DNA of 51,167 nt from Melioribacteraceae bacterium (lineage in GTDB: Bacteria > Bacteroidota > Ignavibacteria > Ignavibacteriales > Melioribacteraceae), in contig JALWGH010000076.1 of assembly GCA_027013735.1 (NCBI GenBank), positions 1 through 51,167 of the forward strand. The letters run 5' to 3'. This document shows, in pieces, positions 4,494 through 41,392 of the stretch. The notes under the pieces were generated by a model. The model was not told where the DNA came from. It did no database searches and was given only the letters and a program-made list of their open reading frames with translations. Both the position numbers and the translations under genes were made by a program. Within the stretch, counting starts at the first letter, position 1; each line of letters begins with the position of its first letter.

Positions 4494-5888
4494 TTATTCT
4501 TTTTCCTGTTCAACAACTTTCCAGTAACCTCCTTTGTCGGGCCCGATACGTTTAATTTTTCCTTCTTTTTTTAATTTAGCTAAATTCCACTCGATTCCTC
4601 TTCTTGTTAAGCCGGTAATCTCTATTAGATCATTTATTGTAACTGTAGAATTATTTTTCATAGCAGAAATAATTTTCTCCACAGTTTTCTCCACAGTTTT
4701 CTCCACAGTTTTCCCCGAAGTTATCCCAAGTTTTATAATTGTCTTAAATAGCTCCCCATCCACAAACTCGGCTGTAGCGCCCTTTGAATAGTACGGCAGA
4801 TATTTGAAAACGTTACGCATACCCGAACCAACTTCTTCTACCAACCCCATTTGTAGTAAAAATTTACTGATAGTTGGATTCTTAGCAATAGGTGTAAAGT
4901 GTTCAGGATCAATTTTGCCGAAAACAATAGGATTATTGGGATTGCTAAATTCAACGGTATCCGAAAAAATCTGAATCATCGCCGGTGCAGGATGCATATA
5001 TTCGCGGTGGGCAATACTATTAACCACCAATTCACGGAATATTTTACTGCGTAAGCTAATGCGAATATTACCCTCCAGATAAAACGGATCGTTCAAGTGT
5101 TTTTCGATAAAGCCCATCAGCAAATCATACGCATCAAGCAAATTTGTACGCACGGTAATCCGGTCATCGTACCGATCCACATTTTCGCGCCGCAGTAACG
5201 CTTCGAACTTGTAAGCAGGTAGAACCGACTGGATTAAATCATCCGTGCCAAAAAACAGAATCGCTGCTAAGGTATAGCCTTCGTTACCGTTCTTTGCTTT
5301 TCTGTAAAATCCGGCACGCGCCAGCAGTGCTTTTTCATCAAGTTCCTGCCAATGATGTGCCGTGTTGTTTAATTTAATTAATTGCTTTGCTCTTGCTATT
5401 AAATCTTGCCTGAAATCACCAAACTTAATTTCGGGAAAAACCGTTTGCTCGCTATAGTAATTTTGTTTACGATTAACGATTTTGGCAATCTCTGGGGGAT
5501 AAGTTACTCGATAGTCGCCATCCTGATTTCTGATGAAAATATCTCCATTAGATTTATGAACATACGAACTTTCCGGTACTTTAATGACTAATACGATTTT
5601 ATCCTCAATTTCAATTTCGTCAACGGATAAAACAATGGATGGTGACAGCTTTTGTTGGTTATTAGCAAGATTTGCAATGTCTTTTTTAAGCTTTGCCACC
5701 TCTTTTTTGTTGACACCAATAATTTTACCTTTATCACTGATGCCGAGTAAAATAAAGCCACCCTTGGTATTAAGAAAGGCACAGATTGTCTCAAACAGAT
5801 TAGCCGGTAGTTTATCGTGACTTTCCTTAAACTCAATACGCAGATTTTCTCCGCTTTTAACAAGCCGTAAAAGTTCGCTTTCCGTCAT
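4494..5888 (-). CDS. Schlafen/AlbA_2 DNA-binding domain protein with an ATPase-like middle region and a C-terminal winged-HTH (RecG-like 'transcriptional regulator' family)
   Basis: N-terminus ESELLRLVKSGENLRIEFKES...NTKGGFILLGISDKG is typical of AlbA_2. The C-terminus TINDLIEITGLTRRGIEWNLAKLKKEGKIKRIG looks like a wHTH. Confidence 0.65.
   Translation of the reverse strand: MTESELLRLVKSGENLRIEFKESHDKLPANLFETICAFLNTKGGFILLGISDKGKIIGVNKKEVAKLKKDIANLANNQQKLSPSIVLSVDEIEIEDKIVLVIKVPESSYVHKSNGDIFIRNQDGDYRVTYPPEIAKIVNRKQNYYSEQTVFPEIKFGDFRQDLIARAKQLIKLNNTAHHWQELDEKALLARAGFYRKAKNGNEGYTLAAILFFGTDDLIQSVLPAYKFEALLRRENVDRYDDRITVRTNLLDAYDLLMGFIEKHLNDPFYLEGNIRISLRSKIFRELVVNSIAHREYMHPAPAMIQIFSDTVEFSNPNNPIVFGKIDPEHFTPIAKNPTISKFLLQMGLVEEVGSGMRNVFKYLPYYSKGATAEFVDGELFKTIIKLGITSGKTVEKTVEKTVEKIISAMKNNSTVTINDLIEITGLTRRGIEWNLAKLKKEGKIKRIGPDKGGYWKVVEQEKE
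4673..4720. repeat. 12-bp in-frame tandem repeat (ttttctccacag x3 plus one degenerate copy)
   Basis: Direct reading gives ttttctccacag three times, then ttttccccgaag. It encodes (KTVE)3 in the minus-strand CDS. Confidence 0.9.
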
Positions 5889-6170
5889 TCGTTACTATTA
5901 AAAGTTTTTCGAATTAAGTTTTTAACAAATTAATTTAATGAAATTATGTGACATATAAAATTGAAATACGACCGTAAAAAGCCTTGGTTTTCCTTAGAGT
6001 TTGTTTATTGTTTCTGTATTCAAACTTTCATCACTAATTTTAAACTTGTACACCAAAAGCAAATTAGATTCTGAATCTACAAGAAAAATAGTCGTTTAAA
6101 CCATTTTCTTTTTGCCGTTGTCAAAGGACTAACAGATAAAAAACATTAATTAAAAAAAGGAGAAGAAAAT

Positions 6171-12039: not shown

Positions 12040-15000
12040 ATGAGTAAAAGCAATTTAAAATTGTTTTTTCTTGCGTTGTTAATTCACGCTAATGTTGCAG
12101 GACAAACGCGCGATTCGCTAATATTTACGGAGGTGATGTTTCGTCCTTCCGCCGCAAACTCCGAATTTATTGAGTTGTTTAATCTCTCTTATTCCGATTC
12201 CGTTGACCTAAAAGGCTGGAGTGTTAAATATCACTCTTCGAAAAAAGATTTTTTAGATTCTTTAACAATTGGGAAAAAATTATCTCCCCGTAGCTACGCT
12301 GTTGTTTTTGAAGGCGACTACGATTTTGAAAACGGCGTTTACAAAAATCTGATTCCCGTGGACGCATTGGTTTTAAAAATTTCGGACAACGCTTTTGGTT
12401 CTTCGGGAATGTCAAATTCGACAAACAGAACACTGCTGTTGTTTGCACCGAACGGCGAGGTTGTTGATTCTTGTGAATACACTGCGGACAACAACGCCGG
12501 ATATTCCGACGAAAAAATATTATTAGACAAAGGCGACTCATCGGACAATTGGGCAAACTCAAAAATGTTTAACGGCACGCCGGGAAATCGCAATTCGGTT
12601 AGCCCGTGGGATTACGATGTGGGGATTTCGTCTATTAAAATTTTTCCGGAAAAGATTTTTGTAAACGATACGGCAAGAACGGAAGTAAAAGTTTTTAATA
12701 AAGGGTTACACGCTGCAAATAATTTTAACGTTTCCATTTACACATCGAAAGATTCCGTTAATTACAATTTAATTTTTGAGCAGACGGTTAACGAGATTGA
12801 CCCAAACGATTCTGTCTCTCTGAGTGCGCGGTTTGTTGCCGGGCAGTCAGGTAAAGTCTTTTTGAAATCAGTAATTAGCTTTAACAAAGATCAGAATAAT
12901 ACAAACGACACTACTTCAGCATTTTTTGAGGTCAGACCTAAACCAAATAGCAGGGGCGATGTGGTAATTAACGAATTAATGTACAAACCGAAGCAAGACG
13001 AACCAGAGTGGATTGAACTTTACAACCCAACACAAAGTAAAATTAATCTAAAAGGCTGGGAAGTTAGAGATAAAACAAGTAAGACCGATTTGTCCGATAC
13101 TTCAGTCTTTATTGATGCAGGCGGATATGTCGTTTTTTCGAGGGACACGCTCTCATCCAATTATTTAGGCAATTTTAAAACCGTAATAATCAATTTACCT
13201 TCCTTAAACAACTCTGGCGACAGGATTGTTTTGCTTGATTCCCTCGGGCAAACAATCGACTCGCTCGAATATTACGCCGACTGGGGAGGCGGAACAGGAC
13301 TTTCTCTTGAAAGAGTTAGTGCTGCAGGGGAAACAAACAACCCCGAAAATTGGGGAACGTCGAAAGGCAATTACGGCGGTACTCCGGGCAGACTCAACTC
13401 AATTTCACCCAAGAAATTTGACCTTGCCATTCAAACGTTCGACTCGGATCAAAAATTCATCGAATACCAACACGAATTAAAAACATTCGTAATAATTAAG
13501 AACAAAGGTTCGGAAGACGCTAAGAATGTAATGTTAAAAATTTACCTCGATAAAAATAAAGACAACTTTCCTCAAAACAACGAGGCTCTTGATTCACTAA
13601 TAATAACGGGGCTTTCATCGGCTGATAGTGTGGAAAAGTCAATAATATTAAGTGATTTGCCTCTTGGTAAAAACACTTTGATTTCTTCTCTTGATTTTGC
13701 TAAGGATGAATTCCCTGACAATAATATTGCCGAATTGGAAGTGAACATCGTTAAATTTGCGGCGGAGAAAGGGGACATCGTGATTAACGAAATAATGTAC
13801 GCGCCTGTAAACGGCGAACCTGAATGGATTGAACTGTTTAATAAAAGTAACAAGGAAATAAATTTGCAAAAATGGTTTGTCGGGGACAATTTACACAAAG
13901 TTACGTTAAGTGAAGAGAGAGCAATTGTTTTACCCGGAAAATATTTTTTGCTTGCGAAGGATTCATCATTTTTAGATTACCACAATTTAACTTCCGGAAT
14001 TACATTTGTGGAGTTCCCGTCATTGAACAATGCCGGGGATGCTGTTGTGATTAAAGATTCGCTCGACCGCTTAATTGATTCGGTTTATTATTCTTCCGCC
14101 TGGGGAGGCACAAAAGGAAAATCATTGGAAAGAATTTCTGCATTTGCGGAAGGTAAAGATTCTACGAACTGGAGCTCTTCAGTTGCAAAAGCAGGCTCAA
14201 CTCCCGGAAAAATAAATTCTGTTTCACAAAAAGAGTTTGACCTTTGTCTTGAAGAACTCACAGCAAGCAAATCTTATTTTGCAGTTAGTTCAAAAATTGA
14301 ACTAAATGCAAAAATAAAAAATTTAGGAATCGAGCCGGCTGAGAGCGCGTCTCTGGATTTTTATTTTGACGGGAACAAGGACGACAAAATTACCGCTGAC
14401 GAATTTATTAAATCGGTTGCGCTGCCCGGCATAGGTTTTGGCGACAGCCTAAAACTGACGGTCGATTTAAATGAATTGCCCGTCGGACAAAATAAAATAT
14501 TCTCGGTTATTAATTTCCCCGAAGATCAGTTTAACGATAATGATACCGCAAGTGTTGTTGTAAACATCGTAAAAATAAATGTTGACAAACAAGACGTTGT
14601 TGTAAACGAAATAATGTTTGCGCCGACGGATGGCGAGCCAGAATGGGTTGAGTTGTTCAACAAAAGCGAAAAGGAAATAAATCTTAGTAATTATTATCTT
14701 GGAGACAATTTCTCTTTTGCAAATCTTGTAAAAAGTAATTTGTTGTTAGAACCACAAGGCTATTGTGTAATAGCAAAAGACTCTTCCATTTTTGATTTTT
14801 ATTCAATTAACAGCAAAGTTCTTGTTACTTCTTTTCCGAATTTGAACAATGGCGGAGACGAGGTTGTTTTGAAAGATTCTCTTTTCAGAACAATTGATTC
14901 GGTAAAATATTTCTCCACTTGGTTGAAGAAAAACGGTCAATCGCTCGAAAGAATTTCGCCGGCACAAAGTTCAACCGATTCGGCTAACTGGGGAACTTGT

Positions 15001-22328: not shown

Positions 22329-22401
22329 GCATCCTTAGCTCAGTTGGTAGAGCATCTGACTCTTAATCAGCAGGCCGGGGGTTCGAGTCCCCCAGGATGC
22401 A
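22329..22401 (+). tRNA. tRNA-Lys (anticodon CTT)
   Basis: Acceptor GCATCCT/AGGATGC; D arm GCTCAGTTGGTAGAGC; anticodon loop CTCTTAA; T arm GGGGGTTCGAGTCCCCC; discriminator A. CCA is not encoded. Confidence 0.9.
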
Positions 22402-22407
22402 CACCGG

Positions 22408-22432
22408 AGCCTTGTAAATCAAGGCTTTTTTT
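22408..22432 (+). terminator. Rho-independent terminator after tRNA-Lys
   Basis: agccttgTAAATcaaggct followed by T7. Confidence 0.8.
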
Positions 22433-22539
22433 ATTTCCAAACTTTTTGCCCGGAATTCCGCAGTGGAATTTCGGGTTTTGTTTTATTGGGATTATTTTTC
22501 ATTTTAAAGACTGCTGTTCAAATGATTGTTCAACATATA

Positions 22540-22730
22540 GTAGGGGACGCAAAGTTTGCGTCCCCTACAACAGATAGATTAATTGTTCGTAGCTCGTAGG
22601 GACAGCTCGTGAGCTGTCCCCATGATGAGAAACAAATTAAAATTTTAACCGTGGAGACAACTTGCAAGTTGTCCCTACCAATCACGTTATCGTTCAACAG
22701 CCGTAGGGACAAGTCGCGACTTGTCCCTAC
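22540..22730 (+). repeat. REP array, 4 units upstream of the RAYT-like gene
   Basis: Palindromes at 22540-22568 (gtaggggacgcaaagtttgcgtcccctac), 22596-22621, 22651-22678 and 22703-22730 (gtagggacaagtcgcgacttgtccctac). The first and fourth units are preceded by a ...gttcaaca... linker; the second has only a weak version and the third none. Confidence 0.85.
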
Positions 22731-22764
22731 GATTTATTGACAAAGAAAAACAGGGTAAAACAAA

Positions 22765-23406
22765 ATGAAAAACAGAAAACCAAACAGGTTGCCGTTTTTC
22801 GATTATTCAAATCCCGCATGGTATTTTGTTACCATTTGCACGAAAAATCACATTCAACATTTCGGCAAGGTTCAAAACGGAAAAATGATTTTAAACCAAT
22901 TTGGGAAAATTGTTGAGAATGCGTGGAATTGGCTTAGTGAACAATATGATTATTGTAAATTGGACGAATACGTAGTTATGCCAAATCATTTTCATGGGAT
23001 AATTATTATTGACCCAGAATTTAATCAAAATAAGCGTAGGGACAGCTCGCGAGCTGTCCTTACAATCCACAATAACATTCAACAGAATAGTAGGGACAAC
23101 TCACGAGTTGTCCCTACAAATTACGTTAACATTCAACAGGAACGTAGGGACAAGTTGCGACTTATCCCTACGAAAGAGGCAACAAAACACATTAAAATTA
23201 AATCTTTATCTGAGTTGGTTGGGGCATTTAAAACAAAATCCTCTAAAGAAATTCACCTTGCGGGTAATCCCCATTTCAAATGACAGCGGTCTTTTTTCGA
23301 CAGGATAATCCGCAACGAGAGGGAATTGTACAACATCAGAAATTACATTCAACAAAATCCGTTGAAATGGGAGATTGAAAAAGGAGTAGAAAATTTAGAT
23401 TTTTAA
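22765..23406 (+). pseudogene. REP-associated tyrosine transposase (RAYT, IS200/IS605-like Y1 HUH family), interrupted by an in-frame TGA at 23281-23283
   Basis: N-terminal part YFVTICTKNH...VVMPNHFHGIIII (HUH motif). After the TGA, the same frame continues QRSFFDRIIRNERELYNIRNYIQQNPLKWE to TAA 23404-23406. This carries the family C-terminal (W)QxxFxDxIIR...YIxxNP segment with the presumed catalytic Tyr. Confidence 0.7.
23035..23170 (+). repeat. Three REP units inside the RAYT-like reading frame
   Basis: Units begin at 23035, 23089 and 23143, an exact 54-nt period. Each is a GTAGGGACA...TGTCCCTAC-type palindrome. The second and third are preceded by aacattcaacag. Confidence 0.85.
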
Positions 23407-23455
23407 TTAACAAATATTCCACGTGTTTAAATGGAAAAAATGTTGATGTTCAAAT

Positions 23456-23532
23456 GTAGGGGACGCAAATTTTGCGACCCCTACAGATTAAGTTAACGTT
23501 CAGTAATGGGACAGCTCGCGAGCTGTCCCTAC
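23456..23532 (+). repeat. REP array, 2 units downstream of the RAYT-like gene
   Basis: gtaggggacgcaaattttgcgacccctac (23456-23484) and gtaatgggacagctcgcgagctgtccctac (23503-23532). Confidence 0.8.
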
Positions 23533-23638
23533 AAATACCATCTCAAACACAACCAAAATCCACGCATCCCTAATTTTTCAATTAGATTTTCCTTATTTTC
23601 GAGTTGTGAAATTTGAATATTAAACCGGAAAAGGACAG

Positions 23639-29210: not shown

Positions 29211-29280
29211 GATTCATTCATCCATGCATCCGATCATCCGTAATGTGAAATTTTCCACTTTCCATTTTCCACTTTCAATT
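29211..29280 (+). repeat. Mosaic intergenic repeat, locus B (G-module plus W-module)
   Basis: gattcattcatccatgcatccgatcatccg, then aaattttccactttccattttccactttcaatt. Confidence 0.75.
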
Positions 29281-41140: not shown

Positions 41141-41392
41141 AATCCAATAATCCAATTATCCAACCATCCAAAATTTTCAATTTAACTTTCCATTTTCCCT
41201 TTTCCACTTTCAATTGAATAAGTTTTAAGTCTCACGTAACGAGTCTCAAGTCTCTGTTCACTGTCCTCTGTTATCTGTTCACTGCGCAGTTATTTCTTGC
41301 GTCTTGCTTGTCGCGCCGTAGTCAAGCGTAGCGCAGACGAAGGCGGACGTCTCGCGTTTAACCATTTCTTCTTTCTGGTTTCTTATTTCTTC
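41141..41392 (+). repeat. Mosaic intergenic repeat, locus E (full module series G-W-S-C-T)
   Basis: aatccaataatccaattatccaaccatcca / ttttcaatttaactttccattttcccttttccactttcaatt / aataagttttaagtctcacgtaacgagtctcaagtctctgttcactg... / cttgcttgtcgcgccgtagtcaagcgtagcgcagacgaaggcggacgtctcg / tttcttctttctggtttcttatttcttc. Confidence 0.85.

Follow-up and report, generated by a model that had tools for sequence, protein, structure and literature searches.

A probable REPtron in a Melioribacteraceae bacterium, with hairpins around and inside a disrupted transposase gene

Why would a small transposase-like gene be surrounded by hairpin-forming repeats and also carry the same repeats within its own coding sequence? 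This question is raised by a locus of a Melioribacteraceae bacterium (contig JALWGH010000076.1), lying in a stretch of 51,167 nt that was analysed as a whole and is called here the window. Nine GC-rich palindromes occur at 22540-23532 of the window, within AT-rich genic and intergenic DNA next to a tRNA-Lys(CTT) gene. They had been taken in the original prediction for a cluster of REP-type (repetitive extragenic palindrome) hairpins around a gene resembling those of tyrosine transposases associated with REPs (RAYTs), and this description has held. The explanation we favor, with a probability of roughly 80%, is that the locus represents a REPtron, that is, a single-copy domesticated-type Y1 HUH gene of subclass 2.4 with its double-foot REPs, which has recently died and whose hairpin arrays arose by block copying.

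The palindromes (units 1 to 9 in Table 1) are far beyond chance and fall into the two subtypes that had been proposed. The subtype B pattern, GTAGGGACA-N10-TGTCCCTAC, has seven matches with at most three mismatches, starting at the positions given for units 2 to 7 and 9, against 0.02 expected from shuffled sequences. A pattern search for subtype A, GTAGGGGACGCAAA.TTTGCG.CCCCTAC, finds units 1 and 8 with 0 expected, so that subtype A opens both the upstream and the downstream array. Neither subtype was found by pattern searches elsewhere in the whole window, even with three mismatches. The layout is also as first described: four units lie upstream of the open reading frame (ORF), three within it and two downstream, and all six flanking units are located no more than 230 nt from the gene. 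The internal three (23036-23171) form a tandem array with a period of 54 nt, equivalent to 18 codons. When folded as single-stranded DNA (ssDNA), a check suggested at the outset, all nine units are predicted to form hairpins, with energies from -6.1 to -15.9 kcal/mol and z scores from -3.1 to -9.3. The linkers between them are related but asymmetric (consensus ...AAATTACGTTAACATTCAACAG...) and give a unit period of 51-57 nt; because of this asymmetry, the units can be read as standing head to tail. A direct arrangement, as opposed to an inverted REPIN doublet, had indeed been claimed, and the linker bears it out, but the distinction is largely moot for a double-foot palindrome, which reads the same both ways. 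The linker is not conserved at two related loci, L001 and L002, where the linkers are AT-rich and unrelated.

The gene associated with these hairpins encodes the two His residues of an HUH motif (codons 22987-22989 and 22993-22995, in PNHFHGIIII) and a catalytic Tyr (codon 23344-23346). As it stands, the ORF extends over 22765-23283 and ends at a TGA after 172 aa, while the homologous frame is clean through 23406, its continuation beyond the TGA encoding QRSFFDRIIRNERELYNIRNYIQQNPLKW. This bears on the Pfam check that had been recommended for the putative Y1 HUH, RAYT-like gene. The read-through product scores 28.6 bits against Y1_Tnp (PF01797; gathering cut-off 23 bits), and 30.6 bits once the insert is removed, but the 172-aa ORF alone reaches 17.2 bits and falls below the cut-off, so that the assignment stands for the former and not for the latter. 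The best NCBIfam model is REP_Tyr_transpos (NF047646), which aligns end to end (model positions 9-138 of 146) and gives the read-through product 62.5 bits, rising to 65.9 bits when the insert is taken out; intact relatives obtain 61.6-75.3 bits. The gene family is related to REP_Tyr_transpos yet outside that equivalog. When a family profile is used, the best solved structure is E. coli TnpA_REP (4ER8), aligned over the HUH and WQ...YI..NP motifs. A PDB search with the single sequence gave no match, the family profile being required.

Among the known systems, the closest is TnpA_REP subclass 2.4, which corresponds to RAYT group 4 of Bertels et al. 2017 and was described by Quentin, Siguier, Chandler and Fichant (2018, BMC Genomics 19:475, PMC6006769). 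Its members have a mean length of 194 aa, carry the motifs NH[IFV]H, WQ and YIxNNP, and are abundant in Cyanobacteria and Bacteroidetes and scattered in many other phyla; their REPs are of a "double foot" kind, GT[AG]G standing at the 5' end and C[TC]AC at the 3' end, and flank the gene as well as lying in frame inside it (PMC6006769). The window gene resembles this subclass in its NHFH, which agrees with the HUH signature. At the W motif, published as WQ, the DNA reads TGA-CAG at the position at which 24 of 24 aligned homologues have Trp followed by Gln, a conserved position whose codon has become a stop. The Y motif, YIQQNP (YIxxNP), equals YIxNNP at five of six positions; the closest relatives vary at the fourth, and more distant homologues from the same searches have YIxNNP. 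The likeness extends to the long double-foot REPs within 1 kb of the gene, to the in-frame REPs between the HUH and Tyr motifs in an insert of variable length, to the occurrence in Chlorobi/Ignavibacteria-type genomes and many phyla, and to the apparently low copy number of the flanking repeats. Every feature tested fits, except that the Trp codon is mutated and that the Y motif deviates at one position. The window locus differs from the published subclass in having three internal units, which places its gene among the top three of 90, a conserved asymmetric linker in head-to-tail units of 51-57 nt, two hairpin subtypes that follow a set order, a stop codon in place of the Trp and, as the fourth residue of the Y motif, Q for N.

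Are the hairpins inside the gene an accident of this locus? The original prediction had them invading the gene, but an in-frame hairpin is a published hallmark of the family (PMC6006769). A protein search recovered 6,348 relatives, which are spread over Melioribacteraceae, Ignavibacteria, Patescibacteria, Omnitrophota, Cloacimonadota and further groups, and the family was surveyed over 80 further metagenomic loci plus loci such as L001 and L002, giving 90 full-length genes. At least one strong internal hairpin is present in 74 of the 90, in the loop between the HUH motif and the Tyr helix, the median distance to the start of the match being 266 nt; the numbers of genes with 0, 1, 2, 3 and 4 internal hairpins are 16, 56, 15, 2 and 1, respectively. 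Nearly all of 24 aligned homologues bear one of two peptides, in one to four copies, between PNHFHGIIII and KIKSLSELIGAFK. The first, VGTSRDLSLQ-like, is GTAGGGACAAGTCGCGACTTGTCCCTACAA in one frame, and the second, RRDRSRPVPT-like, is the same palindrome read one base earlier. Of the internal hairpins, 38 are read in frame 0, 18 in frame 1 and 0 in frame 2, the one that would create TAG. Selection on the encoded peptide was considered and rejected, since homologues use two frames and the same DNA occurs also outside ORFs. A few relatives (P0103, P0114) have a short, hairpin-free loop, for which reason the hairpin is best regarded as an insertion into a permissive loop.

Flanking and internal hairpins belong together across the family. 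The density of double-foot hairpins is 1.07/kb inside the genes, 0.46/kb within 300 nt of them and 0.01-0.04/kb farther off, and internal and flanking hairpins of the same locus share a median identity of 93%, as compared to 64% between loci. Locus L001 contains one hairpin ahead of the ATG and one inside, and a 28-mer identical to unit 4 is found within its homologue. Locus L002, on a 3.7-Mb Melioribacteraceae contig, carries five hairpins upstream, two inside and four downstream, with subtype-A-like units included. By these comparisons, hairpins inside the gene are a family trait and not a local invasion, and the hairpins as a whole are family-specific companions of the gene. At another locus, L150, a 915-nt match (5001-5915) appears to contain a degenerate partial RAYT copy followed by a full one; subtype-A hairpins, GTAGGGGACGCAAACTTTGCGTCCCCTAC, lie there in the coding frame, read as VGDANFASPT, and subtype A is the internal REP of that locus.

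How such an enzyme might handle its hairpins is suggested by two better studied proteins, E. coli TnpA_REP and IS608 TnpA. By analogy, the enzyme would bind the hairpin on ssDNA and read its GTAG foot, cut nearby via a 5'-phosphotyrosine link and, upon rejoining of the strands, copy or rearrange hairpin units. E. coli TnpA_REP (subclass 2.2), which was reportedly the subject of studies by Ton-Hoang et al. in 2012 and Messing et al. in 2012, is also a single-copy Y1 HUH enzyme with GTAG-tagged flanking hairpins and, as the best solved-structure match, the presumed model for hairpin binding and cleavage on ssDNA. The E. coli REPs, however, have a single foot and bulged stems, do not lie inside the gene, and exist in hundreds of copies that alternate in orientation within bacterial interspersed mosaic elements (BIMEs), and the protein itself shows the motifs DHLH, WE and YIHYNP and is extended at its C terminus. 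In Pseudomonas, the REPIN-RAYT systems (RAYT groups 2 and 3; Bertels and Rainey 2011) likewise comprise a vertically inherited single-copy RAYT with cognate palindromes adjoining it, but REPINs are inverted doublets present in hundreds of copies, unlike the palindromic double-foot hairpins of the window, which are placed head to tail and give no sign of a high copy number.

One alternative is that the region is an autonomous IS200/IS605-like insertion sequence (IS) of about 1 kb, bounded by the subtype-A hairpins at 22540 and 23456, that landed between the tRNA-Lys gene and metF. Elements of this kind share the Y1 HUH fold, the recognition of subterminal hairpins on one strand and the like orientation of both flanking hairpins. 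The two A units agree at 93% identity, point the same way and have common left (TGNTGTTCAAATG) and right (AGATTAA) flanks; TGCTGTTCAAATG is found at 22512-22524 ahead of unit 1 and TGATGTTCAAATG ahead of unit 8. Moreover, the window, L001 and L002 have different neighbours, the genes upstream of metF are others in close relatives (MetF 88-91% identical), and the taxonomic spread of subclass 2.4 is patchy, as that of an IS would be (PMC6006769). On the other hand, IS elements are autonomous and present in multiple copies, each end has a single hairpin, and cleavage takes place at defined tetranucleotides, whereas this gene is flanked by hairpin arrays instead of single subterminal hairpins, and no second copy of the unit was seen. 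Its motifs are those of class 2 (NHFH, YIQQNP) and not of class 1 (DH[VI]H, Y[IV]ENQ), and even with the insert removed the product obtains 20.4 bits on the NCBIfam IS200/IS605 model (transpos_IS200, NF033573), for which the cut-off is 55. Relatives were also of no help in delimiting an insertion, as genomes whose MetF is 88-91% identical lack both the tRNA and the REPtron upstream of metF and yielded no empty site. We therefore hold the IS explanation to be highly unlikely.

Selection on the hairpin stem had been proposed from covariation. Among the nine local copies, double-sided changes affect four stem pairs, and the observed covariation score is reached by 0 of 500 shuffles. Broader evidence in the same direction came from a scan of representative genomes for GTAGGGAC-N12-GTCCCTAC, in which only the outer eight pairs are fixed. 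The matches listed comprise at least 123 sites in more than a dozen phyla, with at least 85 distinct free cores. In 85 distinct cores from these listed matches, 86% of positions are Watson-Crick paired, compared to 37% when halves are shuffled, and the central core positions use all four pair types. The hairpin stem is evidently under selection, the evidence from other genomes being much stronger than that of the nine local copies.

The same scan is informative about where such hairpins reside. Among the matches listed, 115 of 126 exact ones lie outside RAYT genes, and several genomes repeat the same core on different contigs. The GTAGGGAC...GTCCCTAC class occurs in frame within genuine genes of other phyla (L024, L049, L086, L121, L122), for instance those of a Ser/Thr kinase domain, a TrwB/HerA-like ATPase, QueA, a PP-loop ATPase (TilS-like) and a tRNA U5-methyltransferase-family protein. 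As sites are found off RAYT genes, and some of them in frame in real genes, the hairpin class is mobile elsewhere. REPs inside ORFs, GTAG-tagged REPs and REPtrons have been treated by Di Nocera et al. 2013 (PMC3733652). Such REPs within ORFs, like the palindromic elements of Rickettsia (RPEs), resemble the present case in that short palindromes are tolerated as extra peptide segments; the difference is that in the window the transposase gene itself is the only gene hit. A literature search with the bare string GTAGGGAC brought up only primer lists.

Could the window then hold the master locus of a REP/RAYT system that is active and has a REP or REPIN population of high copy number throughout the genome? 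The dispersal of the class in other genomes would be compatible with it, as would the fact that two sister-sample contigs break at or near the array, which repeats often cause. Nevertheless, no unit of subtype A or B is present in the rest of the window, some 50 kb, with three mismatches allowed, the density away from the gene is very low across the family as given above, and the 16-mers flanking group 4 genes average about 14 genome-wide occurrences per replicon, versus 57-140 in truly REP-associated groups (Bertels et al. 2017, PMC5581495). A stop codon ahead of the catalytic Tyr and the decay of five of the nine units, both considered below, also speak against an active state, and we consider a high-copy system of this type to be unlikely.

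The state of the gene is determined by the in-frame TGA. This codon replaces a Trp that is invariant in all 24 aligned homologues, and the catalytic Tyr follows 21 codons later. In the window TGA serves as an ordinary stop, closing 6 of 30 long open frames, and on this ground an alternative genetic code was rejected. Sequencing error is an unlikely cause, given that L204, assembled independently from a different sample, shows no difference over the entire element, TGA included. Because the TGA stands in place of the invariant Trp upstream of the catalytic Tyr and is the same in a second assembly, the gene is a pseudogene, through a single TGG-to-TGA transition. The inactivation is recent, as nothing else in the frame is damaged.

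A different interpretation of the same codon is that of a programmed leaky stop, in which UGA-C would be read by tRNA-Trp and the transposase kept at a very low level. UGA followed by C is the weakest termination context in E. coli work, and here the TGA falls exactly at a Trp codon with C next to it, is identical in two assemblies and is followed by 41 undamaged codons. A stop at the very same Trp codon is even present in L047 (about 1303, + strand). That stop, however, is a TAG and not a TGA, and TGG is a single transition away from either. Internal stops are found in 4 of 88 non-redundant homologues, the window included, and those of L192 and L201 are TAA at other positions, so that the stops are scattered as in ordinary decay; the remaining 84 homologues have none. 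The stops of the family look like ordinary decay and not like programmed recoding, and a leaky stop at this locus is extremely improbable.

Loss of the enzyme and the state of the hairpins can be considered together. Decay has started in five of the nine units. The original prediction had regarded only two as imperfect, and had placed them at 23089 and 23143, one base 5' of the units concerned. Its statement that all units begin with GTAGG(G) holds for the GTAG head overall and fails for units 3 (GTGGAG) and 9 (AATGGG). A sister strain, L205, is 97.5% identical, and its positions 1-70 align with window 23468-23535. L205 has a perfect GCGTCCCC where unit 8 of the window has GCGACCCC and, at unit 9, a complete GTAGGGACAGCTCGCGAGCTGTCCCTAC with the full GTAGGGAC head, from which the window copy lacks GTA. 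Since L205 keeps units 8 and 9 whole, it is the window units that are decaying, and this decay is consistent with the loss of the enzyme. The L205 contig begins inside unit 8, and two further sister contigs, L206 and L207, begin 35 nt before metF, which places assembly breaks at or near the array.

The REPtron interpretation has to be weighed against several points. The assignment to subclass 2.4 is a putative one, drawn from motifs and REP traits; the equivalog cut-off of REP_Tyr_transpos, 80 bits, is missed, the best score being 65.9; and the Y motif deviates from the published consensus in having Q for N. The TGA is the one defect of the frame, all conserved residues being intact, and low-level read-through of UGA-C by tRNA-Trp may still supply some active enzyme. 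Finally, the mechanism outlined above is, for subclass 2.4, one of analogy.

A further aspect of this REPtron concerns the way in which its arrays were built. Units 2-3-4 (22596-22760) are colinear with units 5-6-7 (23036-23200), with 75% identity over 165 nt, and the best match of each unit is its positional counterpart, namely 2 with 5, 3 with 6 (78% over the whole unit) and 4 with 7 (93%). Units 8-9 (23456-23532) in turn match units 1-2 (22540-22623). The cores thus follow an ordered series, A, AGCTCG, AACTYG and AAGTYG, of which all four members are present upstream, the last three in the gene and the first two downstream. As the arrays are colinear pieces of one ordered series, block copying would account for them better than nine independent insertions, and the local arrays would have been built through the copying of blocks of units.

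There are also traces of sequence shared by linkers and coding DNA. The 10-mer ACATTCAACA has four copies in the 51-kb window, where 0.13 are expected, and all of them (22850, 23075, 23129 and 23345) lie in the gene. Two are in internal linkers and two in conserved coding sequence (KNHIQHF, and NYIQQNP at the catalytic Tyr), and both coding sites read AAT[CT]AC-ATTCAACA, that is, the linker without the GTTA[AT]C hexamer at its centre. This sharing of the 10-mer is absent from L001 and L002. It has been contemplated that the arrays of 2.4 REPtrons in general, in place of being passive insertions, are copied between flank and gene interior in blocks of several units with their order kept. As a rule for the subclass this is speculative and rather unlikely; if true, it would imply an ongoing exchange of sequence between the RAYT gene and its own REP array, with the variable loop as a reservoir or master copy through which enzyme and substrate would stay matched.

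Regarding its significance, a transposase gene with its own target hairpins in frame was already described for the subclass in 2018, and little discovery value attaches to this aspect. The present case extends that description to Ignavibacteria/Melioribacteraceae-type genomes, and the survey firms up the numbers, with the insert in about 80% of 90 genes, only the two TAG-free frames in use, 93% identity of internal with flanking hairpins of a locus versus 64% between loci, and compensatory variation over 85 distinct cores. In addition, the locus is compact and freshly inactivated and has a sister strain to compare it with, which makes it useful for following the growth and decay of arrays. For annotation, the 172-aa ORF is to be treated as a pseudogene of a REP-associated tyrosine transposase, and its hairpins neither as CRISPR nor as terminators. 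A CRISPR array was rejected on the grounds that the cores vary, the linkers are conserved and the units both flank and lie inside a coding gene. A simple scan for intrinsic terminators flags some units, none with a convincing T-run, the real terminator being that of the tRNA at 22406-22428. As for known RNA families, Rfam matches the tRNA only, everything else scoring far under the gathering thresholds.

Table 1. Coordinates of the hairpin units, the disrupted gene and the neighbouring tRNA in the window
Feature	Position	Strand	Remarks
tRNA-Lys(CTT), neighbour, context only	22329..22402	+	terminator-like hairpin of its own at 22406-22428
REP unit 1, subtype A, GTAGGGGACGCAAAGTTTGCGTCCCCTAC	22540..22568	+	perfect 14-nt arms; -15.9 kcal/mol, z -9.3
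REP unit 2, subtype B, core AGCTCGTGAGCT	22596..22623	+	decayed 3' foot: CCCCAT, not CCCTAC
REP unit 3, subtype B, core AACTTGCAAGTT	22651..22678	+	decayed 5' foot GTGGAG; followed by linker CAATCACGTTATCGTTCAACAGCC
REP unit 4, subtype B, GTAGGGACAAGTCGCGACTTGTCCCTAC	22703..22730	+	perfect double-foot palindrome, -14.3 kcal/mol; 34 nt 5' of the ATG
tnpA_REP / RAYT-like gene, disrupted	22765..23406	+	213 codons; HUH NHFH; Tyr in YIQQNP
REP unit 5, internal	23036..23063	+	reads RRDSSRAVLT; single stem mismatch (CCTTAC)
REP unit 6, internal	23090..23117	+	reads SRDNSRVVPT; followed by linker AAATTACGTTAACATTCAACAGGAAC
REP unit 7, internal	23144..23171	+	reads RRDKLRLIPT; 2 imperfect positions
In-frame TGA	23281..23283	+	at Trp invariant in 24/24 aligned homologues (FKWQRSF); product cut to 172 aa
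REP unit 8, subtype A	23456..23484	+	1 stem mismatch (GCGACCCC); 50 nt past the natural stop of the gene
REP unit 9, subtype B, core AGCTCGCGAGCT	23505..23532	+	truncated 5' foot

Concerning the tRNA-Lys neighbour, 4 of 49 other RAYT loci (L142, L180, L184 and L190) also have a tRNA gene (Leu, Gly, Ser or Arg) no more than about 250 nt away from the RAYT gene. These are four of the eight tRNAs in the 49 loci, in a zone that makes up only about 6% of the sequence, which suggests that RAYT loci mildly favour sites next to tRNAs. A separate hairpin of 13 pairs, GCCCGGAATTCCGCAGTGGAATTTCGGGT, followed by a T-run, is located at 22448-22476, after the terminator of the tRNA-Lys and ahead of the first REP; it is not of the GTAG class. 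Other repeats of the window are unrelated to the hairpin units, and include a 12-nt tandem repeat, TTTTCTCCACAG, in about 4-5 copies at 4673-4734, tandem repeats of 7-8 nt and 14 nt around 29.2 kb (29249-29280) and at 41.1-41.4 kb (41141-41391), and an AT-rich hairpin of 16 pairs at 14277-14313.

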